Sequence record: NC_055721.1
DNA length: 64,000 nucleotides
Direction: 5' to 3' (one strand)
DNA from: Escherichia phage EcS1
Numbering within the stretch: position 1 is the first letter of the stretch; each line of letters begins with the position of its first letter. The notes beneath the pieces were generated by a model that did no database searches, had not been told where the DNA came from, and saw only the letters and a list, made by a program, of their open reading frames with translations. This document shows positions 4,195 through 49,775 of this stretch, in pieces. The translations under genes and the position numbers were made by a program.

Positions 4195-4231
4195 CAAAAA
4201 GGGAGAGCTTACGCTCTCCCTTTTTTATTTT
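4195..4231. terminator. Bidirectional intrinsic terminator (GGGAGAGC-TTAC-GCTCTCCC with A/T runs)
   Basis: 8-bp GC-rich stem flanked by A5 and T-run between convergent hoc-related gene and inh-like gene. Confidence 0.8.
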
Positions 4232-4938
4232 ATAACTTGGAAACTTGAATTACGCGTTTCACGAACGCGAACTAACCCATCACGCTTAATGTAATATAAA
4301 AGACTTAATATCGTATCAATACCGTAGTGGTGTGGGAACGAATGCGGATTCACTTTCCATTCTGGGTTCTTTGTAATCCATTCATAAATCCACCAAGGTA
4401 GAGTTACATAAGTTAATCCACGTCCAATTTGAGCTAATGTAGGACTGAAATCTTTTGGAAGCTCAAATACCTTTTCAGATTCAATAATCTGTTCAATAGC
4501 TTTTTCAAGAGCAGGGAGATCTTCTTCAGTCATAGGCTTGGTTGGGATAGTTTCAATGCCTTCGCTATGAATAACTGTAACAACTTCACCAATTGGAGCT
4601 TGAATAGAGTTAATGATTTTAGCTTCAACGGAAGGAGCTCCGATAGAATCGATCAAAAGTGTCTTGGCTTCATCTTTAGCTTCATCTTTAAAAACAGAAG
4701 TGCCAGTGAGTTCATCATCAGCTTGAATCAAATCAGAGATACTCATTCCGCCAATATCTTCAGGCATTGGTTCAGAAGCAAGTTTTTTCATTTCTTCTGA
4801 CAAGTCAGCAACCATGTTATCAAATGACTTAGTTTTCTTTAAAGTTATGTTGAAAGTAAGAGCGTAGTCGGCCAGTTTTTCTTTGGCTTCTTTTTTGTCT
4901 AGCTCACGAAGTTCGTCAATATAAATTTTATCAATCAT
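4225..4938 (-). CDS. Hypothetical protein, possibly Inh (prohead protease inhibitor) by synteny
   Basis: 237 aa acidic protein at the T4 inh position (hoc-inh-uvsW); no motif verified. Confidence 0.4.
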   Translation of the reverse strand: MIDKIYIDELRELDKKEAKEKLADYALTFNITLKKTKSFDNMVADLSEEMKKLASEPMPEDIGGMSISDLIQADDELTGTSVFKDEAKDEAKTLLIDSIGAPSVEAKIINSIQAPIGEVVTVIHSEGIETIPTKPMTEEDLPALEKAIEQIIESEKVFELPKDFSPTLAQIGRGLTYVTLPWWIYEWITKNPEWKVNPHSFPHHYGIDTILSLLYYIKRDGLVRVRETRNSSFQVIK

Positions 4939-4953
4939 AGTATAGCCTCAGTG

Positions 4954-4961
4954 TATAAATA
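4954..4961 (+). promoter_or_regulatory. T4-type late promoter box TATAAATA upstream of uvsW
   Basis: Exact TATAAATA about 30 nt upstream of uvsW start; random matches are expected in AT-rich DNA, so the call rests on position. Confidence 0.5.
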
Positions 4962-4990
4962 TATCTATATTTATTACTTAGGAATCTCTC

Positions 4991-6490
4991 GTGGATATCA
5001 ATGTACATTTTGAAGATTATAGTCATGTTCTGATTGAATGCTCAGAGAGCATCTTCTTTGAACTAAGAGACTACTTTTCATTTGAAGCTGATGGCTTCAA
5101 ATTTAACCCACAATACAAATATGGTCATTGGGATGGACGAATTCGCCTTTTAGGTTATGACCGTCGTTTGCCATTTGGACTAGTTGGATTCATCGATAAA
5201 TTTGCTTCCAATATGGATTACAAAGTAGCAATTGACCCTAAAATCAATGAGAAAGAAGATATCGCTCGTGTTGATTTTGATAATTGGTTGAATGCTCTTG
5301 AAATTTATTCTGGGTCTACCAAGATTGAGCCACATTGGTACCAGAAGGACGCCGTGTACACTGGCCTGATGAATCGTAGAAACATTCTTAATTTACCTAC
5401 TTCCGCAGGTAAGTCATTGATTCAGGCGCTCCTGGCACGTTATTATGTTGAGAACTATGTTGGTAAGATTTTAATCATTGTTCCAACAACAGCTTTAGTT
5501 GATCAAATGATTGACGATTTTGTTGATTATCGTTTGTTCAATCGTAAGAATATGCTAGGCATTCGTGGTGGTACAGCTCGTGATTCTGACGCAGAGATTT
5601 ATGTTGCTACTTGGCAAACTGCTGTTAAACAACCTAAAGAATGGTTCAGTCAGTTTGGTATGATGATGAACGACGAATGTCATCTTGCTACAGGCAAAAG
5701 TATTTCATCTATTATTGCAGGCTTAAATAATTGTGCTTTCAAATATGGTCTTTCTGGTTCTTTAAAAGATGGTAAAGCCAATTTGATGCAATATGTAGGT
5801 ATGTTTGGTAATGTTTTTAAGCCTGTGTCAACATCACAGCTTATGGAAGATGGTCAAGTAACTGATTTGAAAATCAACTCTATTTTCTTACGTTACCCTG
5901 ATGAATTCTGTGCTCAAATGAAAGGCAAAGATTATCAGACAGAAATTAAGGTTATCCAAAAAGCTAAGAAACGAAATCTTTGGGTCTCTAAGCTTGCTGT
6001 TAAATTAGCTAAAAAAGAAGAGAACGTTTTCTTGATGTTCAAGAATGCCGAACATGGTAAAGAACTTTTCCAAATGGTTAAAGACCTTGAGCATAAAGAA
6101 GTATTCTTCGTAAATGGTGAAGTTGATACTGATACTCGTAATGCATTGAAAGTAATGGCTGAAAATGGCAAGGGTATTATTGTTGTCGCTTCATACGGCG
6201 TATTCTCTACCGGCATCAGTGTTAAAAACTTACATCATATTATTTTTGCACACCCGGTAAAATCAAAGATCATTGTGCTTCAGACTATTGGTCGTGTACT
6301 TCGTAAACACGTAAGTAAAACAACGGCTCAAGTCTGGGACATTATAGATGATATGGGTGTTAAACCTAAGTCTGCTAATGCTAAAAAGAAATATGTTCAT
6401 TTGAATTATGCATTAAAACATGCTCTTGAACGTATTCAACGTTATGCAGAAGAAAAATTCAATTATGTAATGAAACAGGTAGACTTATGA
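4991..6490 (+). CDS. uvsW: UvsW RNA-DNA and DNA-DNA helicase
   Basis: Close colinear match to T4 UvsW as recalled, including Walker A LNLPTSAGKS and DECH box; GTG start (VDINVHF vs T4 MDIKVHF). Confidence 0.9.
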   Translation: MDINVHFEDYSHVLIECSESIFFELRDYFSFEADGFKFNPQYKYGHWDGRIRLLGYDRRLPFGLVGFIDKFASNMDYKVAIDPKINEKEDIARVDFDNWLNALEIYSGSTKIEPHWYQKDAVYTGLMNRRNILNLPTSAGKSLIQALLARYYVENYVGKILIIVPTTALVDQMIDDFVDYRLFNRKNMLGIRGGTARDSDAEIYVATWQTAVKQPKEWFSQFGMMMNDECHLATGKSISSIIAGLNNCAFKYGLSGSLKDGKANLMQYVGMFGNVFKPVSTSQLMEDGQVTDLKINSIFLRYPDEFCAQMKGKDYQTEIKVIQKAKKRNLWVSKLAVKLAKKEENVFLMFKNAEHGKELFQMVKDLEHKEVFFVNGEVDTDTRNALKVMAENGKGIIVVASYGVFSTGISVKNLHHIIFAHPVKSKIIVLQTIGRVLRKHVSKTTAQVWDIIDDMGVKPKSANAKKKYVHLNYALKHALERIQRYAEEKFNYVMKQVDL

Positions 6491-6775: not shown

Positions 6776-6940
6776 CTAAATTAAAAGTTGCGTTTCGTTC
6801 AATTGCTCTTGTGTGTCTTCAGTGACAGGCAATTCACACGCATAATTATAGCAAGGACCTGGATGAACCAGACCTTTGTCTGATTGAACAACCAATGCCG
6901 AATCGATTGGTGTTTTACAGACGACACAAATCTCAGACAT
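6776..6940 (-). CDS. Small Cys-containing protein (54 aa), not in ORF track
   Basis: ATG with GGAG RBS; MSEICVVCKT...PGPCYNYAC (CxxC...C....C); late promoter box upstream. Confidence 0.4.
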   Translation of the reverse strand: MSEICVVCKTPIDSALVVQSDKGLVHPGPCYNYACELPVTEDTQEQLNETQLLI

Positions 6941-7679: not shown

Positions 7680-8078
7680 TTAACGAGCTGAATTACTAAG
7701 TTGAAGCTTGATTTGTTCAACGGTATCCGGGTTGTCTATAATACTAAATTGAACTGTCACAATAAGCGTATAACTATCATACAACGGTGTAACATCAACT
7801 AATAGTTTATCAATACGAGGTTCAAAGTTACGAATAGCAGATATGATATTACGCTGAGTTGTATCTGCTGTAAGTGGTGTCATGTTTTCAAAAAGCTGAT
7901 CAGACAACTCACATCCAAATTCTGGATTAAAGGGTCGAGACCCTTTACGAGTCGTAATAATGCCTAACAAACTGTTTTTAACTGCACGAGACCCAGTGGC
8001 TTTAGAAATATCGCGATCCCAAGCCATATTCATCTCGGGATCGATATCAGAGTATAATTGATTTATGTTTTTGATCAT
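7680..8078 (-). CDS. 25: Baseplate wedge protein gp25
   Basis: 132 aa, same length as T4 gp25; conserved LYSDIDPEM, LLGIITTRKGSRPF, PEFGC, DQLFENMTPLTAD. Confidence 0.9.
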   Translation of the reverse strand: MIKNINQLYSDIDPEMNMAWDRDISKATGSRAVKNSLLGIITTRKGSRPFNPEFGCELSDQLFENMTPLTADTTQRNIISAIRNFEPRIDKLLVDVTPLYDSYTLIVTVQFSIIDNPDTVEQIKLQLSNSAR

Positions 8079-8707
8079 TATAGTAGCTTAAAGAATTCTT
8101 TAAGTCCTTTAATTACATGAACACTGGTTTCGCCACATTCACATGAAATAGGCACTGCTAATACTACTTGTGGTTTTAATAGCATAGCGGTAATGTCTTT
8201 TAGTGCTTCACTAGAGATAGCAGCATAAAGATCATCTAATTCTAAATCTGAAAGATCATCTACTTTAATGACTGAACCATCAACATCAATGAACTCAATA
8301 CACTTAGCAACCATCATAGCCATATTAGAGTCATCAAAAAGTTTAGGGTATTTGAACTTGACCTTAAAGTTAGTGAATTCCCACACCAGGGGCTCAGAGG
8401 GAGCATCAATTTGTGCATGTGTAAAGTTAAGTGGCACCTCTTGTTCCCGCTTACAGGCACACACCCACGTATGCTCATGATTAACTTCACCTAATGAATG
8501 AGCCCAAAGTTTAATGACAAGCAATTCAGATTCTTGGCGATTAAGGTTATCAGCATCAGTACAGTTTTTAATCAGTTCTACGATGGCTAAGTCTAATGTT
8601 CCCTTAAGCTTTGCATGCATAAGGTCTTTATATTCTCTAAGAGTAAATGCTCGGCAATTAACCACTTTACCTGAGACATGTACTGTAAATTTATATTCAA
8701 AGTTCAT
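8078..8707 (-). CDS. 26: Baseplate hub protein gp26
   Basis: 209 aa at the T4 gene 26 position and size; start codon overlaps gp25 stop. Confidence 0.65.
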   Translation of the reverse strand: MNFEYKFTVHVSGKVVNCRAFTLREYKDLMHAKLKGTLDLAIVELIKNCTDADNLNRQESELLVIKLWAHSLGEVNHEHTWVCACKREQEVPLNFTHAQIDAPSEPLVWEFTNFKVKFKYPKLFDDSNMAMMVAKCIEFIDVDGSVIKVDDLSDLELDDLYAAISSEALKDITAMLLKPQVVLAVPISCECGETSVHVIKGLKEFFKLL

Positions 8708-8729
8708 AAAATAGTTCCTCTTATATGTG

Positions 8730-8741
8730 TATTTATAAATA
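8730..8741. promoter_or_regulatory. Overlapping divergent late promoter boxes (TATTTATAAATA) for gene 26 (minus) and gene 51 (plus)
   Basis: TATAAATA on plus at 8734-8741 and on minus at 8730-8737, in the 50-bp divergent intergenic region. Confidence 0.55.
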
Positions 8742-8757
8742 GATGAAAGGAGATACT

Positions 8758-9510
8758 ATGGCTAATATCGTACGTTGCAATTTGCCTGATGGTACTCATC
8801 GTTTCAAGCCGTTCACAGTCGCAGATTATCGAGATTTCTTGTTAGTTCGAAATGACATGAACACTAAATCAAAAGAAGAACAAATCGAATTGCTTGACGA
8901 TCTCTTAGATGATTATTTCGATGAATATCCTAAATCATGGCGCCCTTACATTTTTATTTCAGTTTTTACTTCATCTATCGGTAAAACAAAAATACCTGTA
9001 GCATATGAATGTTCTAAATGTGGTAACACAAAACGATTCATGATTAACCTGGCCCAACCGCCATTAACAGCTCCAACCATTGAATGCTCAGGTGTCAAAA
9101 TCAAATTCAAATACCCAAATGAATTCACTGATGACTTAGTCCAATTAGTCGCTGACAATATCGATTCAGTCGAAGACAGTGAAGCTGTTTATAAGTGGGA
9201 TGAACTTGATAATGAAACTAAAGTTCAAGTGATTGATTCTATTGATTACAAATCATTTGAAGCTCTTATCAAGAAAATGAAACCACTTTATATAGAAGTT
9301 AATTACGGCTGCTGTACAAAACACCAATATGTTTATGATTCATTAGTAGATGTATTTAAATTATTATTGAACCCAGATGAAGTCTTTTCTTTTTATCAAG
9401 TGAATCATCTTTTAGTTAAAAGTCATTATGACTTAAATTCTGTTATGAGTATGATTCCAATTGAAAGAAGTATTGCTTTATCATTAGTCGAAAAGGACCT
9501 TAAGAAATGA
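8758..9510 (+). CDS. 51: Baseplate hub assembly protein gp51
   Basis: Second ATG with AAAGGAG RBS; ~250 aa as in T4 gp51; synteny. Confidence 0.65.
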   Translation: MANIVRCNLPDGTHRFKPFTVADYRDFLLVRNDMNTKSKEEQIELLDDLLDDYFDEYPKSWRPYIFISVFTSSIGKTKIPVAYECSKCGNTKRFMINLAQPPLTAPTIECSGVKIKFKYPNEFTDDLVQLVADNIDSVEDSEAVYKWDELDNETKVQVIDSIDYKSFEALIKKMKPLYIEVNYGCCTKHQYVYDSLVDVFKLLLNPDEVFSFYQVNHLLVKSHYDLNSVMSMIPIERSIALSLVEKDLKK

Positions 9511-10715
9511 CCAAAACAGTCCAGATGGCTGGGTATCCTAATATTAGTATCAAGCTATATGAAAACTATGATGCTTGGCTTGAAAATAGATTTGTTGAAC
9601 TTGCTGCTACATTCACTACACTCACAATGAGAGATGGACTTTATGGAAACAATGAAGGCCTTCTTCAGTTCTATGATAACAAGAATCTCCATACTAAAAT
9701 GGATGGTGAACAAGTCATTCAGATTTCTGTAGCTAATGCTAACACTCAAAGAACATTATCTCGTATCTATGGATGTAAACACTTTGCTGTAGGTGTTGAC
9801 TCTAAAAGTGATAACATCATTACGATTCAATTAGCACCAATTCATATTTTAGAAGACTTGAAATTCTCAAGAACATTTTTTGCTAATGCCTCACAAAGTA
9901 TTAACGAAATGATTAACGTCATCTATCAAGACCGACCGTTAATTGCACCACCCGTTGAATCACTTAACATATATGTTCCTAAGGTTCCATGGTGTGGCAA
10001 TGTTCCTAAATACTATGACTTCGTTCGCGATACTGGGTTAGCTGTTGATTCTGACCAATTCGTTTTTGTTTGGGAAGATATCCAAGGCATCAGGTTCATG
10101 GATTATCAACAAATGACTGCTCAAGAAGCTAAAACATTTGTTGTTGGTGAACCAAGACTAATTGGACAATATGTTAATCAATTAGAAACACCTATCGCAT
10201 TTGACTTTGAATGGCTAACTAAAGCTAACCAACACACACGTAAGCCAATGACTAACGTTACGATATATGCTCATTCATTTATGGATAAAGAGGTTACTCG
10301 TATTGTTGTTGGTGAAGGACAAAATAGTGTATTAGTTTCACGTTCAGGTGCTTATGCTGAACAGATTTATCGTAACGGTTATGAAGAAGCATTGCGATTA
10401 GGAACAATGGCTCAATACGATGGTTATGCTCACGTGAAGGTATACGGTGACTTTGAATTATGCCCAGGTCAAAAATTAAACTTTGCTGATATTAAGAACC
10501 AATTCGTATCTGATTTTTATATTGATGAAGTGATTCATGAAATAAGCAATAATCAATCAATCACTAACATCTATGCATTTACAAATGGTAAGCCGATTAC
10601 ACCGGTAGAACCAATTAAGGTGAAAAATGAACTTAAAACTTATAATCCCGATGAAGACATTGAAACTGAATGGGAAGGACCTCAAGATCCCGAAACTGGG
10701 ACTGAAACACCATAA
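9507..10715 (+). CDS. 27: Baseplate hub protein gp27
   Basis: 402 aa; position and size as T4 gp27 (391 aa). Confidence 0.7.
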   Translation: MTKTVQMAGYPNISIKLYENYDAWLENRFVELAATFTTLTMRDGLYGNNEGLLQFYDNKNLHTKMDGEQVIQISVANANTQRTLSRIYGCKHFAVGVDSKSDNIITIQLAPIHILEDLKFSRTFFANASQSINEMINVIYQDRPLIAPPVESLNIYVPKVPWCGNVPKYYDFVRDTGLAVDSDQFVFVWEDIQGIRFMDYQQMTAQEAKTFVVGEPRLIGQYVNQLETPIAFDFEWLTKANQHTRKPMTNVTIYAHSFMDKEVTRIVVGEGQNSVLVSRSGAYAEQIYRNGYEEALRLGTMAQYDGYAHVKVYGDFELCPGQKLNFADIKNQFVSDFYIDEVIHEISNNQSITNIYAFTNGKPITPVEPIKVKNELKTYNPDEDIETEWEGPQDPETGTETP

Positions 10716-11169
10716 ACTAGTTCGTGATGTCCGCGGCCCAGATGAGAATCTTAAAATACTAATGGATTCTATATGTCCTGGTTTAACGGCTGCTGAAACA
10801 GATTTCGTTGCTCTTCATGTATTAGCATTTAATAATCGTTTGAAAGATGAAGTCACAATAGATGGCTTCACTTATAAATTGAATGACATTTATATTTGTC
10901 AACGATTAGAACAACAATTTGCTGGTCATACATTCTATTTCAGGTCTAATAAGCCATTTGAACAGTTCGGACCAGTCGATGATGTATTAGAGAAATGTTT
11001 CTTAAAAGTAGATAATTCTACCGAATGCCCTGATTTCATGGGTATGCCTGCATTTGTTTCTAAATGGGCTGATGATATTACTTCGACTGTAGCTATTCCT
11101 GGTCCTAATGGCCCTATCAAAGGAATAATACCTATTATGGACATTTTAAATGATTCAACCAAACAGTGA
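10627..11169 (+). CDS. 28: Baseplate hub distal subunit gp28 (start uncertain; overlaps gp27 3' end in another frame)
   Basis: 180-aa ORF at T4 gene 28 position; 89-nt overlap with gene 27. Confidence 0.55.
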   Translation: MNLKLIIPMKTLKLNGKDLKIPKLGLKHHKLVRDVRGPDENLKILMDSICPGLTAAETDFVALHVLAFNNRLKDEVTIDGFTYKLNDIYICQRLEQQFAGHTFYFRSNKPFEQFGPVDDVLEKCFLKVDNSTECPDFMGMPAFVSKWADDITSTVAIPGPNGPIKGIIPIMDILNDSTKQ

Positions 11170-12916
11170 TAAAACTACATTACGTCGTAAGAAAAAAATA
11201 GAAGATGGCGAACCTGAGCGTAAAGCTCAGGGGGCAGCATCAGATCAAACTGTTGTCCTTAATGATATATCTGCTAAATTAACCGACGTACAAGCAGCAA
11301 CTGAACTAATTTCAGATACGGTTGAAGCTAAAGGTAATCAAATATTAGGAAGCATTGATGGGCTTTCTAAAGGTCTAGAAAATGTAGAAGCGGCCTCAGA
11401 ATTAGCGGCTGAAGCTTCAGAGAAAACAACTGAACAAGTTTCTAAACTCAATGATGTTGCTTCAGCTATTTCAGATAAATTAGCTAAGCTTTCAGAGATG
11501 TTCGAGCATAAGCTTTTTGGTGCATCTGATTTTGTTGGCCCACAACCTTCAGCATCTCCTGATTCATCTTTACTTGAAGCAATTAAAGCTGCAATGCCTC
11601 TTGAAGTAATTCAGCCATCGTTGAATGAATTACTTGAAAAACTATTACCAGGAGGACAACCGCCAGAACCGCCAACTCCTCCACCTGAAGACCCTCCTGC
11701 AGAAGAGAAACCTTCTAAAGAAAAACCAGGTAAGAGTGAAGATTCTAAATTAGATGATTTGATTAAAATCACTAAAGGAGGATTCAAAGCTTCAGTAGGT
11801 GTGTCTGACAAAATTGCTGGTATGTTGTTCAAATATACATTGACAGCAGCAGCCGAAGCAGCTAAATTAGCCGGGATGATGTTTGCACTTATTTTAGGTA
11901 TTGATCTTATTAGAATTCATTTCAAATATTGGAGCGATTTGTTTAATAAGAGTTTTGAAGAGTTCTTTGCTAAAGCTGAAGAATGGGGACCTTTAATTCA
12001 ATCAGTTGTTGAGATGGCTAAAAATATTTCTACAATGTGGGACGAAAAGAATTGGTCTGGTCTTGCAGGTGCTATTATTAAAGGCATCGGTGATATTACT
12101 ATTGCATTAGCTGATTTAATGTTCTTAGGCATCACTAAAATTACGGCTGCAATGCTTCGTGCAATGGGTATGGATGATAAAGCCTTAACTGTAGAAGGTT
12201 ATGGTTTAGAACAATTCCAAAAATCAGGTGCAGTTCTTGATGAACAAGACCAAGATACTTTGGCTCGTTATCAAGATCGTAATATGCAAAAAGATACTAA
12301 GAAAAAAACTGAAACAGCTGAAAGGTACAAAAATAGCAAAGCGGCTCGTGAACAAGCAGTTAATTATGGGTCTCTGACAAAAGAAGAAGCTGCTCAAATC
12401 GAAGCTGGTACTTATGGCAAAGAGAATGAAATTGCTAATCTTCCTGAAGATCAACGTATTAAAGCTATCAAGGCTCGTAATGAAACTCAAGCTGCATTAA
12501 AACGTACTAATGATTTAACAGCGACAACTCGAAGCAGTGATACTTCGCGCATCGAAAATCTCGATAAATCTATTGACTCAATTGGTAAGCGTTTAGCTGA
12601 TCCTGCATTAGCTAAAACACCTAAGCTTCGTAAAGACATGGAAGGCGAATTAGGTAAATTAACGGCTGCAGTAGATAAGCTTAAAGCAGATGCTAAGGTA
12701 GCTCCAGCTCCGGTTGAAGAACAAGAAGATACTCAAAAATCTAATCGTATTGAACAACAGAAACGAGCTAATGAAGCAGCTAAAAATGCTCCAGCATCAA
12801 ATGCTCAAGTCACTAACAATACTGTTGTAAATAAGACTAGTAAAACCAATGTTACTGTGCCACCTACAAGTTCAACTCCTGCTCCAGGCATGGGTGGCTC
12901 ACGAAGGGTTAATTAA
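11150..12916 (+). CDS. 29: Tail tube tape-measure / baseplate hub protein gp29
   Basis: 588 aa (T4 gp29 ~590), Ala/Lys-rich coiled-coil-like composition; synteny. Confidence 0.7.
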   Translation: MIQPNSDKTTLRRKKKIEDGEPERKAQGAASDQTVVLNDISAKLTDVQAATELISDTVEAKGNQILGSIDGLSKGLENVEAASELAAEASEKTTEQVSKLNDVASAISDKLAKLSEMFEHKLFGASDFVGPQPSASPDSSLLEAIKAAMPLEVIQPSLNELLEKLLPGGQPPEPPTPPPEDPPAEEKPSKEKPGKSEDSKLDDLIKITKGGFKASVGVSDKIAGMLFKYTLTAAAEAAKLAGMMFALILGIDLIRIHFKYWSDLFNKSFEEFFAKAEEWGPLIQSVVEMAKNISTMWDEKNWSGLAGAIIKGIGDITIALADLMFLGITKITAAMLRAMGMDDKALTVEGYGLEQFQKSGAVLDEQDQDTLARYQDRNMQKDTKKKTETAERYKNSKAAREQAVNYGSLTKEEAAQIEAGTYGKENEIANLPEDQRIKAIKARNETQAALKRTNDLTATTRSSDTSRIENLDKSIDSIGKRLADPALAKTPKLRKDMEGELGKLTAAVDKLKADAKVAPAPVEEQEDTQKSNRIEQQKRANEAAKNAPASNAQVTNNTVVNKTSKTNVTVPPTSSTPAPGMGGSRRVN

Positions 12917-12924
12917 GGAATATT

Positions 12925-13983
12925 ATGGACATCAAAATTTTAGATGATTTCAAAGATAAGTTTGATTCACTTATTGGCGAAAAAACATCTGCCGGACAAA
13001 GTAAAGTTCAACCAATGAGAAAAACCATTAGCGCTCAATATCCGGCTGAGCGCGCCTCAGGCAATGATGGTATAGACGATTTACGCATTAACGATCTTTA
13101 TAAAAATGGGCTGTTATTTACAGCCTATGATTATAAATCAAGAACAACTCCTGATTTACGTTCAATGCGTTCATCTGTTATTGAAAGTGTTCGTAATAGT
13201 TTTGACCCTGTGAAAGGCACCACTGTTGGTGCCGGAACTCAATTCGATAAGAATCCTATTGCTAATATATTGTTACCACGTTCTAAATCTGACACCGATT
13301 CTATTTCGCATAAGTTCAATGATGTGGGTGAATCACTTATTACTCGTGGTGCAGGGACGGCCACTGGTGTTTTAAGTAATGTCGCTTCTACCACAGTATT
13401 TGGTGCCATTGAATCAATTACTCAAGGTTGGATGTCAGACCATGGTGAACAGATTTATAACACAGCACGTTCAATGTATGCTGGCCCTGATAATAGAAGC
13501 AAAGTATTCACGTGGGACTTAACCCCACGAAATGTTCAAGACTTAATTCAAATCATTAACATCTATGAGACCTTTAACTATTTCTCATATGGTGAAACAG
13601 GCAATAGTAATTTTGCTGCTGATTTGAAAGAACAGATTGACTCATGGTACAAAACCACATTCATTAATAATCTGACACCAACAGGAGCTGACACTTCAAA
13701 TACGATGATGGAACAAGTTACTTCGTTCTTGAGTAATGTCATTGTTGTGAGTAATCCAACAGTTTGGTTTATTCGTAACTTTGGTAAAACATCATCGTTT
13801 GACGGTCGCCCAGATGTGTTTGGGCCTTGTCAAATACAAAGTATAAGATTTGATAAGTCACCAAATGGTAATTTTAATGGATTGGCTATTGCTCCTAACT
13901 TACCAAGTTCATTCGTATTGGAAATCACTTTCCGTGAAATCTTGACATTGAACCGTGGAACTCTTTATAATGGAGCTCTATAA
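12925..13983 (+). CDS. 48: Baseplate tail-tube junction protein gp48
   Basis: 352 aa; synteny 29-48-54. Confidence 0.7.
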   Translation: MDIKILDDFKDKFDSLIGEKTSAGQSKVQPMRKTISAQYPAERASGNDGIDDLRINDLYKNGLLFTAYDYKSRTTPDLRSMRSSVIESVRNSFDPVKGTTVGAGTQFDKNPIANILLPRSKSDTDSISHKFNDVGESLITRGAGTATGVLSNVASTTVFGAIESITQGWMSDHGEQIYNTARSMYAGPDNRSKVFTWDLTPRNVQDLIQIINIYETFNYFSYGETGNSNFAADLKEQIDSWYKTTFINNLTPTGADTSNTMMEQVTSFLSNVIVVSNPTVWFIRNFGKTSSFDGRPDVFGPCQIQSIRFDKSPNGNFNGLAIAPNLPSSFVLEITFREILTLNRGTLYNGAL

Positions 13984-14948
13984 TGTTTACATTAGAAGAA
14001 TTTAAAAACCAAGCTGGGAATATAGATTTTCAGCGTACCAACCTTTTTAGTGTAGTCTTCGCGACTACACCATCAAGTAAATCACAACAACTGCTCGATC
14101 AATTTGGCGGCATGATATTCAACAACATTGCATTAGATTCTGATTGGTTAGGGTTAAAGCCTGGAGATATTACTCAGGCAGTAACGTCTATAGCCGTCGC
14201 TGGCGGTCAGCAATTGATTCGTAAGTCAGGTATAAGTAAATATCTGATTGGTGCGATGTCCAACAGGGTTGTGCAGAGCTTACTAGGTGAGTTCCAAGTA
14301 GGAACTTATCTTTTGGACTTCTTCAATATGGCATTCCCTACTTCAGGTTTAATGGTATCAGCAGTCAAATTGCCTGAGAACCAATTACAACATGAAATGG
14401 ATTTGAATCATAATGCGCCAAACATTAGAATCACTGGTCGTGATTATACTCCTTTGATTCTTACATTCCGTATGGACCCTGAAGCAAGTAACTTTCGTGC
14501 AATGCATGATTGGGTGAATGCAGTCCAAGACCCAGTAACAGGTTTACGAGCTTTACCTGAAGATGTTGAAGCTGATATTCAAGTTAACTTACACGCACGT
14601 AATGGTTTACCACATACCGTAGTAATGATGCAAGGGTGTGTGCCTGTGGGCGTAGGAGCCCCTGAATTAACTTATGATGGTGATAATCAGATAGCTATTT
14701 TCGATGTGACCTTCGCATACAGAGTGATGTCTGTTGGTGCTGTAGGACGTCAAGCCGCATACGATTGGTTAGAAGATAAAGCCATAAACGTTATAACTGG
14801 TATCAATGGCGATATGAGTATGAATTCATTACTTCCAAGATTAAGTCGCTTAGGCGGAGCAGGAGGTGGTATAAGTCAGATAGTTACTGGCGCAGGACGA
14901 GCTACAGGAGCATGGAATACTCAGTCGAGGATTTTAGGCGGGATATAA
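13983..14948 (+). CDS. 54: Baseplate tail-tube initiator gp54
   Basis: 321 aa (T4 gp54 320 aa); synteny. Confidence 0.7.
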   Translation: MFTLEEFKNQAGNIDFQRTNLFSVVFATTPSSKSQQLLDQFGGMIFNNIALDSDWLGLKPGDITQAVTSIAVAGGQQLIRKSGISKYLIGAMSNRVVQSLLGEFQVGTYLLDFFNMAFPTSGLMVSAVKLPENQLQHEMDLNHNAPNIRITGRDYTPLILTFRMDPEASNFRAMHDWVNAVQDPVTGLRALPEDVEADIQVNLHARNGLPHTVVMMQGCVPVGVGAPELTYDGDNQIAIFDVTFAYRVMSVGAVGRQAAYDWLEDKAINVITGINGDMSMNSLLPRLSRLGGAGGGISQIVTGAGRATGAWNTQSRILGGI

Positions 14949-36437: not shown

Positions 36438-36445
36438 TATAAATA
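36438..36445 (+). promoter_or_regulatory. Late promoter box TATAAATA upstream of GIY-YIG endonuclease gene
   Basis: Exact box 26 nt upstream of ATG 36471, followed by GAGGAG RBS. Confidence 0.5.
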
Positions 36446-36470
36446 CCAAAATATAGAGGAGTTACCCCAC

Positions 36471-37229
36471 ATGAAATCAGGCATTTATAGAATAATTAAC
36501 ATTAATAATAACAAATCTTACGTTGGCAGCACTATAGACTTCCAAGCAAGATGGAAACGACATTTTTCGGATTTGAAGAACGGGTGTCATTCTTCAATCA
36601 AACTCCAACGTTCATACGATAAACATGGTAAAGATTCATTCGTTTGTGAAATAGTTGAGCAGACTCCATATGATGAATCTATAATTTCATTAGAAGATTA
36701 TTATATCATCTATTTTGATTCAAAACAAAACGGATATAATATTGCTAACGCAGCATTTGGCGACACTTTATCGCACCACCCTAACAAAGAAGAAATATTT
36801 AAGAAAATAAGCATTTCTCTTAGAGAAAACAATGAAAAACTTTCTGAAGAAGAAAGGAAAAATAAATTTGGAAGTAAAAGTTGTAAGAAAGGTAAAAGCT
36901 ACGAAGAATTTTACGGAGCTAAAAAGGCTCAAGAAATAGGTCTTAAACTTTCAGAAAGCAATTATAATAGACAAATGTCTGGAACTAATAATCCATTCTT
37001 TGGTAAGACACATAGTGACGAAGTTAGAAAGAGAATTTCTGCCACACAGAAAGGACGTAAGAAACCTCATGTTAAATTAAGTATAGAAGGAACTATTTAT
37101 CAATCAGTGGCAGAAGCAATGAAAGCCACAAATCTTTCTCGTAAAGTTATAGAAAGACGTTGTGGCTCTGAATTATTCATAGATTGGTTTAGACTTCATA
37201 TAGCCATTTTACCTTTAATTGGAGGGTGA
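36471..37229 (+). CDS. Free-standing GIY-YIG homing endonuclease (I-TevI/Seg-like)
   Basis: N-terminal GIYRIININNNKSYVGST...RWKRH GIY-YIG module; repeated basic NUMOD-like linker (GKTHSDEVRKRIS); opposite strand to flanking td and nrdA; 3' end overlaps td 3' end. Confidence 0.85.
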   Translation: MKSGIYRIININNNKSYVGSTIDFQARWKRHFSDLKNGCHSSIKLQRSYDKHGKDSFVCEIVEQTPYDESIISLEDYYIIYFDSKQNGYNIANAAFGDTLSHHPNKEEIFKKISISLRENNEKLSEEERKNKFGSKSCKKGKSYEEFYGAKKAQEIGLKLSESNYNRQMSGTNNPFFGKTHSDEVRKRISATQKGRKKPHVKLSIEGTIYQSVAEAMKATNLSRKVIERRCGSELFIDWFRLHIAILPLIGG

Positions 37230-40867: not shown

Positions 40868-41773
40868 TTACATACCTGCTAACAGAGCATCTAAGTCGTC
40901 TTCATCAGCACCACTTGGTGTGGTATCACGAGATTGGACATTAGTACGAGCTGTATCAGTAAAGTCTTTCATATCTTGGTCGAAGGCATCAAGTGAATCA
41001 CCGATTGCATCAGCCTGAGCAGAAGCTTTAGCGGCAGCACCACCAAGTGCAGCGATACCAAATACTTGTTCAAATTTCTTCTGGTTTACATCCAGAGTTT
41101 TGAACTTATCTTTAGAAGTCAGTTCGCTCAAATCAGACATATTGTCATTGAGGAATGTCTGGAACGTTTCGTCGTTGATATTAGGGATTTCAGATTGACC
41201 TAAGAATTTAGAGTCATCATAGTTCTTGAAATCACCGACTTTCTTAGTTTTCAGTACGAAGTTCGCACCATCGAAAGGACATGTCACATCGACTGGAGTT
41301 TCACCGATAGAGGTATCAACTTCAACCATTGCTGTGATTTTGTCGTATACTTTCTGACCAAAACGGAACTTGAATACTTTACCTTCTGTTTCTGGGTTAG
41401 CTTTATCTTGAACAACCAAGATGTTAGCCCAGTATGAAGTCTTACGCTTCAGGAGTTGGTATTCAGGCTTATTCGTATTGTACGAATCATTTTTAGACAG
41501 ATATTGGCAAACTGGACAGTTATCAAAGTCACCATGAGTAGAAGTACAGTTTTCGATGTACCATTTACCATTTTTCTTGAAACCGTGATTCACCAGCTTA
41601 GCAAACGGAAGACCTTCATCACCTTTACCTGGAAGGAAACGAATAACAGCCATGCCATTACCGTTGTCGTCTTTCAATTTCCATTCATTCTTATCGTCAG
41701 AAGAGAAACCTTGACCACCTTTCAGAGAAGCCAGTTGTGCTTGAAGAGCTGCAGGATCTTTACGCTTGAACAT
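40868..41773 (-). CDS. 32: Single-stranded DNA-binding protein gp32
   Basis: 301 aa as T4 gp32; near-colinear ([45 protein letters not shown]). Confidence 0.9.
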
Positions 41774-41858: not shown

Positions 41859-42512
41859 TCAGATTTTGCAACTCTTGATAGTTTGTATAAAGAGCGTTTT
41901 AGCTTCCAAGGGATTAATATTCAAAATCTTCTTGTAAGCTTTCAATTTAATCGAATAATTCGACCAAACTAAATCAGTAGACAGTTCGTCATGTTTATCT
42001 ATTATATCCAAAAAAGAATCAAGCAAAATAAACGTTTCAAAACTGATAACGTTTGATTGGAGAAGCTTGAAGATATAACTCGAGCTGACGTTCTTATTAT
42101 ACACAAATAATTCGTTAAGCGAATTGGTTTCAACTTTCTGAGCGAAGTAATACATGTTCTTAATATCATCTTCGAACACGGTTTTAACTCGTTTCAGTTT
42201 ACCAATATATTCACGATAAAATACTAACGCGTCAGCATCACTGATGTCGCCAATCCATGCATCTTGGTTAGCAACCAAGTTACTCATGAATATTAATGTT
42301 AGTTCTTTAAGAGTGTATTTGTCAGCTAGTTTTTCAAAGAAATACTTGTCACGACGTTTGTTATAGGCTGCGTCAGAAATTCGCATGGTCCAATTATACT
42401 TTATAACGTCGTAACGACCATTAAAGTGCTGTTTGAGCATCAAATACAACATATAAACTGATTTACCATTTATATGTCGTGTATTATTAGGAGGCATGCG
42501 AATTTGAATCAT
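41859..42512 (-). CDS. 59: Helicase loader gp59
   Basis: 217 aa as T4 gp59; strong match (GKSVY.LYLM.KQH.NG.YDVIKYNW, ANQDAWIGDISDADALVFYREYIG). Confidence 0.9.
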   Translation of the reverse strand: MIQIRMPPNNTRHINGKSVYMLYLMLKQHFNGRYDVIKYNWTMRISDAAYNKRRDKYFFEKLADKYTLKELTLIFMSNLVANQDAWIGDISDADALVFYREYIGKLKRVKTVFEDDIKNMYYFAQKVETNSLNELFVYNKNVSSSYIFKLLQSNVISFETFILLDSFLDIIDKHDELSTDLVWSNYSIKLKAYKKILNINPLEAKTLFIQTIKSCKI

Positions 42513-42817
42513 AGCAAGAAATCCAGGGTATTTGTTCGTTGAGTACGAGCCATAGATGGACGAAGAAGATTATCGTCAATGGCTTCGCTCATAATTTTAT
42601 CAATTATACCAGTCGGAATGAATCGAGCAAATTGACCTTCTGGAACAGAGTTTTCTTCAAGCCAGGCAGTCGTTACTTCAAGATAAGAAGAACCGGTTTT
42701 AGCAACCAGTTTTTCAATATCGAAGCCATTTTGTTGTTTATCTAAAGAAGTATTGATATCATCTTTAGTAATAGGGGCGCCAGCCCCATCATCATTTAGC
42801 AGGGAAAATTGAGTCAT
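42509..42817 (-). CDS. 33: Late transcription co-activator gp33
   Basis: Start at MTQFSL as in T4 gp33; conserved C-terminus (LEENS.PE.QFA.FIP.GII.KI.SEAID.NLLRPS...TNTLDFLL). Confidence 0.8.
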   Translation of the reverse strand: MTQFSLLNDDGAGAPITKDDINTSLDKQQNGFDIEKLVAKTGSSYLEVTTAWLEENSVPEGQFARFIPTGIIDKIMSEAIDDNLLRPSMARTQRTNTLDFLL

Positions 42818-43082
42818 ACAGTTCAACAACCTCTTCTTTCTCAGATTCAAAACGATCACGTGTACCTTTGTGATGCAGAGAGAACACTTGGCCAAACATT
42901 TTACCGTCTACACCAAGTTCTTTCTTAGCTCGAGTTTTGATTTCTTTAATTTGGTCGCCATAAGCTTCCATTTTCAATTTAATATCAGAAGCTTCTTTAA
43001 CCATTTTAGCCAAGTCAGCACCATGGACAGCTTCGTCAAATTCAACTTTAAATTCTTTCTTTTCTTTAACTTCTTTAGACAT
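42792..43082 (-). CDS. dsbA: Double-stranded DNA-binding protein DsbA
   Basis: Matches T4 DsbA as recalled (EFDEA.HG.DLAK..KEASD.KLK, ELGVDGKMF, EEVVELYD). Confidence 0.8.
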   Translation of the reverse strand: MSKEVKEKKEFKVEFDEAVHGADLAKMVKEASDIKLKMEAYGDQIKEIKTRAKKELGVDGKMFGQVFSLHHKGTRDRFESEKEEVVELYDSIFPAK

Positions 43083-44132: not shown

Positions 44133-47100
44133 ATGGCCGATATTTTAAAACCTGCTTTCCGTGCCACATCCGGCCTTGATGCAGGTGGCGATAAAGTTAT
44201 CAACGTTGCGAAAGCTGATTTCGACGTTTTAAGTGATGGTGTTAACGTTGATTTCTTCATTGAAGAAAACACCATCCAAGAATATATTGAAACACGTGCA
44301 TACCGTCAAAACTTTGCTGTTATGTTTGATGGACGTATCTGGACTGCTAAAGCTGATATTGCTTCACCTTCAGGGCCATTCCAAGAAGCACGTTGGACTG
44401 CATTACGTACTGACCCAAAATGGAAATATGTTACTTCAGGGGCGAACAATGCTCTTAATTCAGGCGATACCATTTCTGTTACTACTGAATTAGGCGATGT
44501 TGGATTCATTTTACCAAATGATCCACAAGATGGCGACACCATTGTAATTAAAGATGTCGGTGCGAAGGTTGGTTACAATTCACTTAAAGTAAAAGTATCA
44601 AACCAACAGATCGTTAATTTAGGTAACAAAGTAAATGAACTTCTGATTACCAAACCACGTTCAGAAAACGTGTTTATTTTTAGTAATCGTTTATGGTATT
44701 TTTATGCTGCTGAAGAAAGTATTCATGCAACTCAAATCACTGTAGCAAATAACGAATATCGTGCATCGGCTAGTGAACGTATCTTCCGTACTCACTCAGC
44801 GCCAGGTGCAATCATTGTTGTTCTGCCTAAATACGCAAACAATGGTGATATCATTTATTTCACTGACCTTGATGGGTTAGCTCCGTTACAACATTTAATT
44901 GTTAAGACATTTGATAACACTTCAAGTATTGGTAAAGCTGGACAATATCAGATTGAATCACGTACTTCGGCCGATGGCTTAGTTATCTACGATGCATCTA
45001 CTAAAGTATGGAAGATTTGGGACGGCGATATCAGACAACGTCTTCGTATTATTCGTGATGACGTAAATCTGTTAGCCAATGAAAGTGTCATGGTTTTTGG
45101 TGTTAATAACTCAGTTCAAAAAACAATTAACATTAAATTACCTGCTGGCGTTGCGATCGGTGATAAAGAACGTATCGCAATGAACTATATGCGTAAAGGT
45201 CAGAAAGTAATTATTACCGCTGCAACTGGCGATAAAATTGCTACTTCTAAAACTTTGCTTCAGTTCCCTAAACGTTCTCAGTATCCACCTGATGTTGAAT
45301 GGGTTAAAGTCGATTCATTAGAATTTGATGGTACCATTGATTATGTTCCTATTATGGAATTATCTTATGTGGAAGATGGTGCTGAAAAGTATTGGGTTGT
45401 TTCTACTAATGATCCGACAGTAGAACGTGTTGATGCAACTAGTGATGCTAATAGACAACGTTTAGGTGTTATTGCTCTGGCAAGCCAGGCGCAAGCTAAT
45501 GCGAACCATGAACAGACTCCTGAAAAAGAATTAGCTATTACTCCAGAGACTTTAGCTAACAGAACAGCTACTGAAACTCGTCGTGGTATAGCACGTGTAG
45601 CAACAACAGCTGAAGTTAATAAATTAACGACTGACACTTATGCTGATGATACTATTATTACACCTAGAAAGTTAAATGAACGTTCAGCTACTGAAACTCG
45701 TCGTGGACTTGCTGAAATTGCAACTCAGCCTGAAACTAATGCCGGAACAGATGATACAGTCATTATAACGCCGAAAAAACTAGAAGCACGTCGTGCAACT
45801 GAAACTATGGCTGGTATTGCGCCTTTAGTTGTTTCAGGTGGTATTCCAGGTATTGACCGTGATACTGTAGGAACTGGCATTTACGAACGTACTGAACATA
45901 CTCGTCAAGTAACGCCTAAGACCTTGTTTGAAAATAAGGCTACTCAGACGGCGCAAGGTGGTGTTTGGATGGCAACTGGCAATGAAACTATTGCTGGGGT
46001 AGTTGATACTCCTGCGATGCCTCTAGCTGTGTCTCCTGAACAACTACATAAAAAGACTGCTACTGAAACTCGTATTGGTTTTACCGAAATTGCTACACAA
46101 CCGGAAACTGATGCTGGGACTGATGACTTCAGATTCATTACGCCTAAGAAATTAAATAACCGTAATGCTACCGAAACTTTGACAGGTATATCGCGTGTCG
46201 CGACACAAGTGGAATTTGATGCTGGTACTTTAGATAATGTTATTTCAACTCCGTTGAAAATTAAAACTAGATTTAATGATACCGCTCGTACTTCTGTTAT
46301 CCCAGCCAGTGGTTTAACTGAATCAGGAACTCTCTGGAACCATTATACACTGGATATTCGAGAAGCATCTGAAACACAACGTGGTACAGCTCGTTTAGCG
46401 ACTCAACTTGAAGTAAATACTGGTACAGATGATAAAACAATTGTTACTCCTTTAAAACTTCATAGCAAAAAAGCTACTGAATCTTCTGAAGGTATTATCC
46501 AAGTAGCAACTCAGGCTGAAACAGTTACAGGCACATCTCCAACTAAAGCAATATCGCCTAAGAACTTCAAATATGTTGTTCAACAAGAAACGACTTGGGA
46601 AGCAAGTCCAACCACTCGTGGTTTTGTTAAGATTTCTGAAAATGCTATTACTTGGGTAGGTAATAATACAGCTGGGTCTACTAAACCATTAGACCAATAT
46701 GTGAAATCTGGGTATGCTATTTCTCCATATGAGTTGAATAAAACTCTGGCTAATTATTTGCCATTAATGGCTCAAGCTGAAGATTCACGTAATTTAGATG
46801 GACTTGATTCACTTCAATTCATCCGTCGTGATATCGACCAAACTGTGAATGGCAAATTAACTCTGACCAAAGAGTTAGTGACTTCTGCTGCTATTACTTC
46901 AACTGCCGCTGCAACATTTGATTCAGTATTAAGTATCAAAACAGTGACAATTGGTAATAATACAGGTAATGCTATTTTCAATATGGCTGGGACCACGAAC
47001 CCATGGGCTATTTCTGCATTATCATCTAAAGATACTATTGAATTCAAGTCTGGTACTTCAGCTAATGCTTTAGTATTGAATAAGAATGGTGATACAACAA

Positions 47101-49127: not shown

Positions 49128-49775
49128 ATGGCCGATTTAAAAGCTAGTTCTACAGTTGGAGGAGCCGTTATTTGGCACCAAGGAAACTTCCCGTTGTTCC
49201 CAACTGGTGACTCTCTTCTCTACAAAACATATAAAGTTTATTCTGAAAAGGATAAGCCGCAAGCAGTAGATAATGACTTTGTTTCAAAAGCAAACGGAGG
49301 CGATTATCTTAAAAGTGTTAACTACACTGAAGGTTTAACATTAAATGATTCTGCTGGGTATAAAGTTAAATTTGGCAAGCCTATTTCTACAGACCCAAAT
49401 ATAATCTATACAGCTTCACTTCAAATCCAATCTCCATTTGGGTTAGAAACCGCGGCTGGGCAGCCATTCATTATATTTGACCCAACAACTGAACCGACTA
49501 CACCTCGTTTAACTGTAATGGGTAAAGTAATTGCTGGGCAATTGTGGGATACTAATACACGTGTATACTCACCTATAAACCCGCCAAAACCAGTTGATGT
49601 TGGATTAGGCAATGTAACTAATGATGCTCAAGTTAAAAAAGCTGGTGATACAATGACAGGTCTTTTAACTGCACCCAATTTTATTTCATCAAATATTGCA
49701 TCTCGTTCTGATCATGTGCCTCAATATGGACAAGTAATTGCTAAAAACACTGAAATAGATTTTGGCACTTATTGA
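49128..49775 (+). CDS. 36: Long tail fibre distal subunit gp36
   Basis: 215 aa (T4 gp36 221); synteny. Confidence 0.7.
   Translation: MADLKASSTVGGAVIWHQGNFPLFPTGDSLLYKTYKVYSEKDKPQAVDNDFVSKANGGDYLKSVNYTEGLTLNDSAGYKVKFGKPISTDPNIIYTASLQIQSPFGLETAAGQPFIIFDPTTEPTTPRLTVMGKVIAGQLWDTNTRVYSPINPPKPVDVGLGNVTNDAQVKKAGDTMTGLLTAPNFISSNIASRSDHVPQYGQVIAKNTEIDFGTY

Follow-up and report, generated by a model that had tools for sequence, protein, structure and literature searches.

A conserved 12-bp palindrome as a very probable bidirectional late promoter of baseplate genes 26 and 51 in Escherichia phage EcS1

The gene 26/51 spacer

Baseplate genes 26 and 51 of Escherichia phage EcS1 (NC_055721.1) lie on opposite strands and diverge from a spacer of 50 bp, within which sits the perfect 12-bp palindrome TATTTATAAATA (positions 8730-8741 of the window, the whole stretch of 64,000 nucleotides that was analyzed). 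This arrangement raises the question of how two late units could be served from so little DNA: whether one site works as the promoter for both, and whether two polymerases could occupy it at the same time. The first-pass annotation had described a 12-bp element with a late-promoter box on each strand, offset by 4 bp in a 50-bp divergent spacer. Its coordinates agree with those found here, and its gene names, 26 and 51, hold as well, given the PF12322 matches of both genes and the T4 order of their neighbors. The genes on either side of the spacer are as follows.

7680-8078, minus strand: gene 25, baseplate wedge subunit, 132 amino acids (PF04965); its start overlaps the end of gene 26
8078-8707, minus strand: gene 26, baseplate hub subunit, 209 amino acids, first gene of the leftward unit 26-25 (PF12322, E=8e-57; T4 synteny; X20 annotation)
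8758-9510, plus strand: gene 51, baseplate hub assembly protein, 250 amino acids, heading the rightward block (PF12322, E=1e-61)
9507-14948, plus strand: gene 27 (confirmed by Pfam) and four ORFs, closely packed and co-directional, the ORFs being matched to T4 genes 28, 29, 48, and 54 by size and order only

The neighboring products include gp25 (PF04965), UvsY (PF11056), and gp27 (PF09097/PF09096), and the order uvsY-25-26/51-27 is that of T4. EcS1 gp51 and its T4 homolog share about 50% identity, the N-terminus being MANIVRC in EcS1 and MANIIRC in T4.

The spacer proper (8708-8757) is bounded by the CAT at 8705-8707, which is the gene 26 start, and by the gene 51 ATG at 8758. On the plus strand, it reads CAT aaaatagttcctcttatatgtg TATTTATAAATA gatgaaaggagatact ATG. 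The palindrome holds two copies of the 8-mer TATAAATA, one on the plus strand at 8734-8741 and the other on the minus strand at 8737-8730. These boxes are offset by 4 bp and have in common the self-complementary TATA at 8734-8737, and each of the 12 palindrome positions falls within at least one of them. There is a single exact copy of TATTTATAAATA in the 64-kb window, compared with the 0.01 copies expected from dinucleotide-preserving shuffles.

The gp26 and gp51 proteins are paralogues; both match PF12322 over their full length, and BLASTP aligns them with 26% identity over 148 residues (E=1e-8). Their genes sit head to head around the palindrome. Mirror symmetry extending beyond the 12-mer, as in a dimer site or in what an inverted duplication of the paralogous genes would leave behind, was considered and rejected: only 3 of 16 flanking positions are mirror-complementary in the window. 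Overall mirror symmetry of the flanks is 39%, in a spacer that is A+T-rich and has a ribosome-binding site in each arm. At the far end of gene 26, the 26/25 junction at 8078 has an overlapping gene end and gene start, as it does in T4, where this junction contains a split ribosome-binding site with an intervening hairpin (PMC3014915). The T4 annotation also documents an internal gene 26' start, which is a feature of T4.

Predicted promoters, starts, and leaders

According to Nolan et al. (2006; PMC1524935), late promoters have their box at -13 to -6. They show no conservation at -35 (PMC7892883). Placing the two boxes of the palindrome in this frame gives the following features.

8734-8741, plus strand: P51 late-promoter box TATAAATA for gene 51, -13 to -6, an exact consensus match
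8730-8737, minus strand: P26 late-promoter box TATAAATA for gene 26, with -13 at 8737 and -6 at 8730, an exact consensus match
8730-8741, unstranded: common core of P26 and P51, TATTTATAAATA, identical in T4 and found in 28 of 31 distinct spacers (see Conservation)
8747, plus strand: predicted P51 transcription start (A), placed from the box position
8724, minus strand: predicted P26 transcription start (A), placed from the box position
8749-8752, plus strand: gene 51 Shine-Dalgarno GGAG, which begins 2 nt past the predicted start and whose columns are moderately conserved
8717-8720, minus strand: gene 26 Shine-Dalgarno GAGG, read from the sequence

In the P51 box, A is present at -12, -9, and -8 (8735, 8738, and 8739); in the P26 box, read on the minus strand, the same positions are A at 8736, 8733, and 8732. 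The predicted starts are 23 bp apart. The predicted P51 leader is 11 nt (AAGGAGAUACU) and the predicted P26 leader 17 nt (AUAAGAGGAACUAUUUU), each counted up to the AUG, and the distance from box end to ATG is 16 nt for gene 51 and 22 nt for gene 26. The first-pass annotation had put each start about 7 nt past its box. This needs a slight correction, since a box at -13 to -6 places the start at the sixth nucleotide after it.

The ORF-finder start of gene 51 is an in-frame ATG at 8743 (MKGDTMANIV...). Because transcription is predicted to start downstream of this codon, at 8747, it is unlikely to be used. Three points favor 8758 as the gene 51 start: the T4-like N-terminus (MANIIRC in T4), the AAGGAG at 8747-8752, and transcription predicted to begin at 8747. 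For the annotation of EcS1, the gain is thus that one 12-bp site would be assigned as the late promoters of both baseplate hub units, that the start of gene 51 is set at 8758 rather than 8743, and that both mRNA 5' ends are predicted. Past the P51 box, the plus strand has no further WATAAATA until 20260, so the P51 box would serve gene 51, gene 27, and the four ORFs that follow.

Within 500 bp of the palindrome there is no second exact TATAAATA box, and the nearest one-mismatch boxes all fall within coding sequence; two lie downstream of the gene 26 start. A consensus scan found no sigma-70-type hexamer pair in the spacer. Across 33 contexts, the columns upstream of each box and outside the other box are nearly random, with no conserved -35. 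The site has the sequence features of a T4-type late promoter: an exact box, no -35, a position upstream of late genes on the same strand, and gp55 and gp33 encoded by the phage. It also fits the description of a bidirectional promoter, in that -10-type elements coincide on opposite strands and the predicted starts are separated by 23 bp, where the definition allows 7-25 bp.

Factors for late transcription and the proposed mechanism

The phage sigma factor gp55 is encoded in the EcS1 genome and is 76% identical to T4 gp55. The bases flipped at -12, -9, and -8 fit into gp55 pockets made of Y97, of N13 together with H95, and of T99, respectively (PMC7892883), and these residues (N13, H95, Y97, T99) are invariant. 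Two other genes for relevant DNA-binding or transcription proteins are adjacent within the window.

42509-42817, minus strand: gene 33, late-transcription co-activator gp33 (PF16805, E=3e-25)
42792-43082, minus strand: dsbA, DNA-binding protein (PF11126), overlapping gene 33 as in T4

In the proposed mechanism, host RNA polymerase together with gp55 would read TATAAATA on the non-template strand late in infection. From the plus-strand box (8734-8741), transcription would begin at about 8747 and proceed through gene 51, gene 27, and the baseplate genes after them; from the minus-strand box (8737-8730), it would begin at about 8724 and proceed through genes 26 and 25. Because the TATA at 8734-8737 is self-complementary, the two 8-mers can overlap by 4 bp, and each start would fall just upstream of its own gene's ribosome-binding site. 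Two promoters, two leaders, and two ribosome-binding sites would in this way be packed into 50 bp.

Both boxes are exact, oriented, and contained in a 50-bp spacer, the 12-mer is identical in T4 and conserved, and gp55 and gp33 are encoded by the phage. On these grounds, it is very probable that the 12-mer is a bidirectional T4-type late promoter for genes 26 and 51. We infer the exact starts and the promoter activity in EcS1 from the sequence.

Conservation

EcS1 is a T4-like phage of Tevenvirinae type, and its window matches the IMG/VR genome IMGVR_UViG_2974737508_000001 (175,437 bp) without a difference. The closest phages to EcS1 in GenBank are members of Winklervirus that infect Serratia, Erwinia, and Kosakonia, with about 80% nucleotide identity. 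Of 14 annotated lineages having the divergent 26/51 arrangement, 12 contain the exact 12-mer; lineages with the 12-mer include Tequatrovirus, Winklervirus, Kanagawavirus, Gaprivervirus, Mosigvirus, Karamvirus, Jiaodavirus, Gelderlandvirus, Tegunavirus, Muldoonvirus, and Lazarusvirus (Acinetobacter). A scan of IMG/VR with a gp51 alignment yielded 52 loci with 31 distinct spacers, and the exact 12-mer is present in 28 of these 31.

Conservation is confined to the boxes. When the spacers are aligned with the 12-mer as anchor, the four or five columns on each side carry only 0.1-0.8 bits, and beyond these flanks conservation partly returns only at the two ribosome-binding-site regions. In an unanchored MAFFT alignment of 37 distinct sequences, the 12-mer is the sole conserved block besides the start codons, and the variation in spacer length, which ranges from 45 to 70 bp, lies entirely outside this block. 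Few non-coding elements of T4-like phages are conserved as rigidly as the palindrome, and where it shifts, it does so with the late consensus of the lineage.

The variants are of several kinds. RB49-type phages have TATTTTATAAATA, which is the 12-mer plus one T; the gene 51 box is kept and the exact gene 26 box is lost. The exact symmetric pair is thus not indispensable. The same 13-mer, TATTTTATAAATA, is present at two divergent spacers of RB49-type phages, 26/51 and rnh.1/34, the second at positions 995-1010 of the RB49-type sequence compared. Aeromonas phages 25 and 60AhydR15PP have a shorter palindrome, TATTTAAATA, which corresponds to TTTAAATA on both strands. In the Aeh1 gene 4/48 spacer, TATTTAGCTAAATA contains the Aeh1 consensus on both strands, this published late consensus being CTAAATA (PMC1524935). 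Since the variant palindromes track each lineage's late consensus on both strands, they fit two promoters rather than a fixed protein-binding site.

In 60AhydR15PP, six of the nine copies of xTTAAATA are intergenic, within the 6.7% of the DNA that is non-coding, while TATAAATA occurs once. The motif is found upstream of holin, tail-fibre, and inh genes, and from this distribution it appears to be the late-gene box of this phage. Its boxes, for example those at 5634-5641, 11138-11145, and 41045-41054, have T in place of A at -12. Altered gp55 pockets were considered as a source of this -12 variant and ruled out, N13, H95, Y97, and T99 being invariant.

A universal divergent arrangement was likewise ruled out. 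Pseudotevenvirus and Slopekvirus have the co-directional order 54-51-26-25 with no such spacer, so the divergent group and the group with tandem 51-26-25 (Slopekvirus and Pseudotevenvirus) would be separated by an inversion that breaks at or near the palindrome promoter.

Together, the exact consensus boxes, the T4-identical 12-mer, and the conservation across genera support the proposal of the first-pass annotation that late promoters for both baseplate units would lie at one site.

Alternative roles of the palindrome

A perfect palindrome is also what a dimeric protein typically binds, and it might be kept mainly as such a site, modulating late transcription. DsbA is one candidate: its gene is present in the window, overlapping gene 33, and DsbA has been reported to bind A/T-rich sites that overlap two T4 late promoters, though its reported affinity is low and its gene non-essential (PMC2988020). 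The symmetry of the EcS1 site, however, ends exactly at the box edges, with the 3 of 16 mirror-complementary flanking positions noted above. Moreover, RB49-type phages lose the palindrome and retain the plus-strand box, and the Aeromonas and Aeh1 variants follow their own late-promoter consensus. The pattern of conservation fits promoter boxes better than a DsbA site, and a dimer-binding role as the main reason for the palindrome is thus very unlikely, although DsbA may bind the site alongside its use as a promoter.

The two-promoter reading must also be weighed against the idea that only one box is functional, the other being a by-product of partial self-complementarity whose gene is transcribed from elsewhere. 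The TATA in TATAAATA is self-complementary and so supplies part of a reverse box for free, and RB49-type phages tolerate the loss of the exact minus-strand box. Yet this free part covers just 4 bp, the 4 bp further out on either side are invariant in 28 of the 31 spacers, and the lineage variants alter both boxes symmetrically. In addition, genes 26 and 51 head divergent units, each of which must have its promoter within the 50-bp spacer or beyond it, and the nearest alternatives are the one-mismatch boxes in coding sequence, two of which lie downstream of the gene 26 start. A single working box is highly improbable on this evidence. Even less credence can be given to the idea that the A/T-rich core supplies the -10 element for an early or middle promoter of host sigma-70 type, despite the similarity of TATAAA to TATAAT. 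The consensus scan detects no promoter-like site in the spacer and 6 sites in the region compared with 17.5 in shuffles, the genes served are virion baseplate genes, and the element conserved on each strand is the whole 8-mer, not a hexamer. A bidirectional late promoter therefore remains the preferred reading.

Predicted mutual exclusion of the two promoters

The cryo-EM structure of the late open complex reveals DNA unwound from -12 to +2, with gp33 contacting the upstream duplex and the gp45 ring encircling this duplex at the upstream end of the complex (PMC7892883). The bubbles computed for EcS1 are 8735-8748 for P51 and 8723-8736 for P26, with 2 bp in common, and the upstream duplex of each complex coincides with the melted and downstream DNA of the other. 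Both open complexes would consequently need the same DNA, and each DNA copy would accommodate one polymerase at a time. Given this bubble geometry, the P26 and P51 complexes should exclude each other, as far as the published structure can be applied to EcS1.

Selection for the 4-bp overlap itself is a separate and more speculative idea. The overlap might work as a toggle controlled by which way the gp45 clamp faces, but this is rather unlikely. Under such a scheme, the clamp would activate only the promoter facing its polymerase-binding side, and the baseplate unit that fires would depend on which strand had offered the clamp its loading point, a nick or a primer end. A strongly activated direction would then repress the opposite one, in the way seen at activated bidirectional promoters of E. 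coli. If the toggle were true, late transcription would be split between the paralogous hub genes, and expression noise could be limited. Duplication of the central TATA would yield TATTTATATATAAATA, in which both boxes are intact and do not overlap. Among the 37 distinct spacers (45-70 bp), there are no TA or TATA slippage variants that separate the boxes and leave both intact. This absence is weak evidence, a hint, that the overlap may be selected.

Known counterparts

Overlapping divergent promoters in the T4 base plate cluster were reportedly mapped experimentally by Scarlato et al. (Virology 1989). The corresponding T4 spacer (NC_000866, 116429-116478) has the identical TATTTATAAATA, the same length of 50 bp, and the same gene order as that of EcS1, while the spacer flanks differ, the proteins are only about 50% identical, and host and phage are different. 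No promoter features are annotated in the T4 GenBank records NC_000866 and AF158101.

Predictions for other relatives agree with this layout. In RB69, late promoters have been predicted at Pl:118620 (+) and Pl:118672 (-) (PMC1524935, Additional file 5), and the two 43-nt windows overlap within the 26/51 spacer of RB69, 118622-118670. In Winklervirus LC53, the predicted TATAAATA boxes precede the hub subunit gene by 22 bp and the hub assembly gene by 17 bp (PMC10132071, Table S7); the box-to-start distances are thus 22 and 17, compared with 22 and 16 in EcS1. Both RB69 and LC53 have one predicted late promoter per hub gene, on opposite strands of the same spacer. The available text and promoter tables of PMC1524935 and PMC10132071 contain no remarks on promoter overlap or its consequences.

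EcS1 shares with T4 P26/P51 the 26/51 spacer and its synteny, the same core, and the same 4-bp overlap. By these shared features, the EcS1 element is the orthologous copy of the T4 one, and the promoter pair is already known. Current understanding is not overturned; the element is real but ordinary.

Comparable pairs exist at other phage loci. The Aeh1 4/48 spacer (TATTTAGCTAAATA) and the RB49 rnh.1/34 spacer (TATTTTATAAATA) are short and divergent with the lineage's box on both strands, and the late-promoter predictions of Nolan et al. cover both strands of each (PMC1524935). They differ from the EcS1 site in the gene pair, in the box sequence, and in the overlap, which is 0-2 bp in Aeh1 and takes the form of the 13-mer in RB49.

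A broader parallel is found among bacterial sigma-70 bidirectional promoters, in which -10 elements on opposite strands coincide and 23 bp is among the preferred start spacings (Warman et al., bioRxiv 10.1101/2020.01.31.928960). At bidirectional promoters of E. coli, binding of one polymerase blocks the other, and this competition affects output only at high activity (NAR 2026, PMC12825309). The EcS1 site has in common with these promoters the divergent starts from coinciding -10-type elements and the 23-bp spacing, which in EcS1 is predicted. In contrast to the sigma-70 pairs, it involves gp55, an 8-bp box, no -35, and activation by a sliding clamp of defined polarity; its symmetry is perfect and deeply conserved rather than pseudo-symmetric, and both directions yield essential mRNAs. 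It would offer a natural test case, outside sigma-70, for the recent rules of polymerase competition at bacterial bidirectional promoters.

Other late-promoter boxes in the window

The window contains 10 copies of TATAAATA, compared with 5.9 expected, and 4 of 100 shuffles reach 10; for WATAAATA, there are 14 copies where 14.4 are expected. Over-representation by plain motif count is not significant, and placement and conservation were used instead. By rough gene calls, 7 of the 10 exact boxes lie in the approximately 9.4% of the window that is non-coding. A binomial estimate for this placement is about 6e-6, or about 3e-4 without the 26/51 pair, and the A+T-richness of spacers could account for part of the excess. 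Seven exact boxes end 16-31 nt ahead of start codons on the same strand, those of uvsW (GTG at 4991), a 54-aa ORF (6776-6940), gene 26, gene 51, a GIY-YIG ORF, gene 34 (tail fibre), and a 215-aa ORF at 49128.

Another exact intergenic TATAAATA, at 1683-1690 on the plus strand, has G+C-rich flanks (GCCCCAGGCT TATAAATA GGCCTCTG), and within 650 bp downstream there is no plus-strand ORF of at least 50 amino acids. This box could be a chance match or the promoter of a small or antisense RNA.

The exact TATAAATA at 36438-36445 (+) is positioned 25 nt upstream of a 252-aa ORF (feature 36438-37229) whose N-terminus, MKSGIYRIININNNKSYVGS..., resembles a GIY-YIG homing endonuclease. This ORF lies between nrdA-like and td-like genes, on the opposite strand; its start and the 5' end of the nrdA-like ORF overlap. 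The product is probably a homing endonuclease that is free-standing and expressed late.

A second bidirectional late-promoter layout, of a different type, is seen in the spacer 4939-4990 between a minus-strand 237-aa ORF (4225-4938) and uvsW. Here the left-hand box is the plus-strand TATAAATA (4954-4961) and the right-hand one a minus-strand AATAAATA (4975-4968). Between the two fall the predicted starts, 4967 (+) and 4962 (-), and the bubbles would overlap by about 8 bp. For comparison, the LC53 table lists boxes at -33 of inh and -29 of the helicase gene, and Aeromonas phage 60AhydR15PP has the same crossed layout at 44781 (+)/44802 (-).
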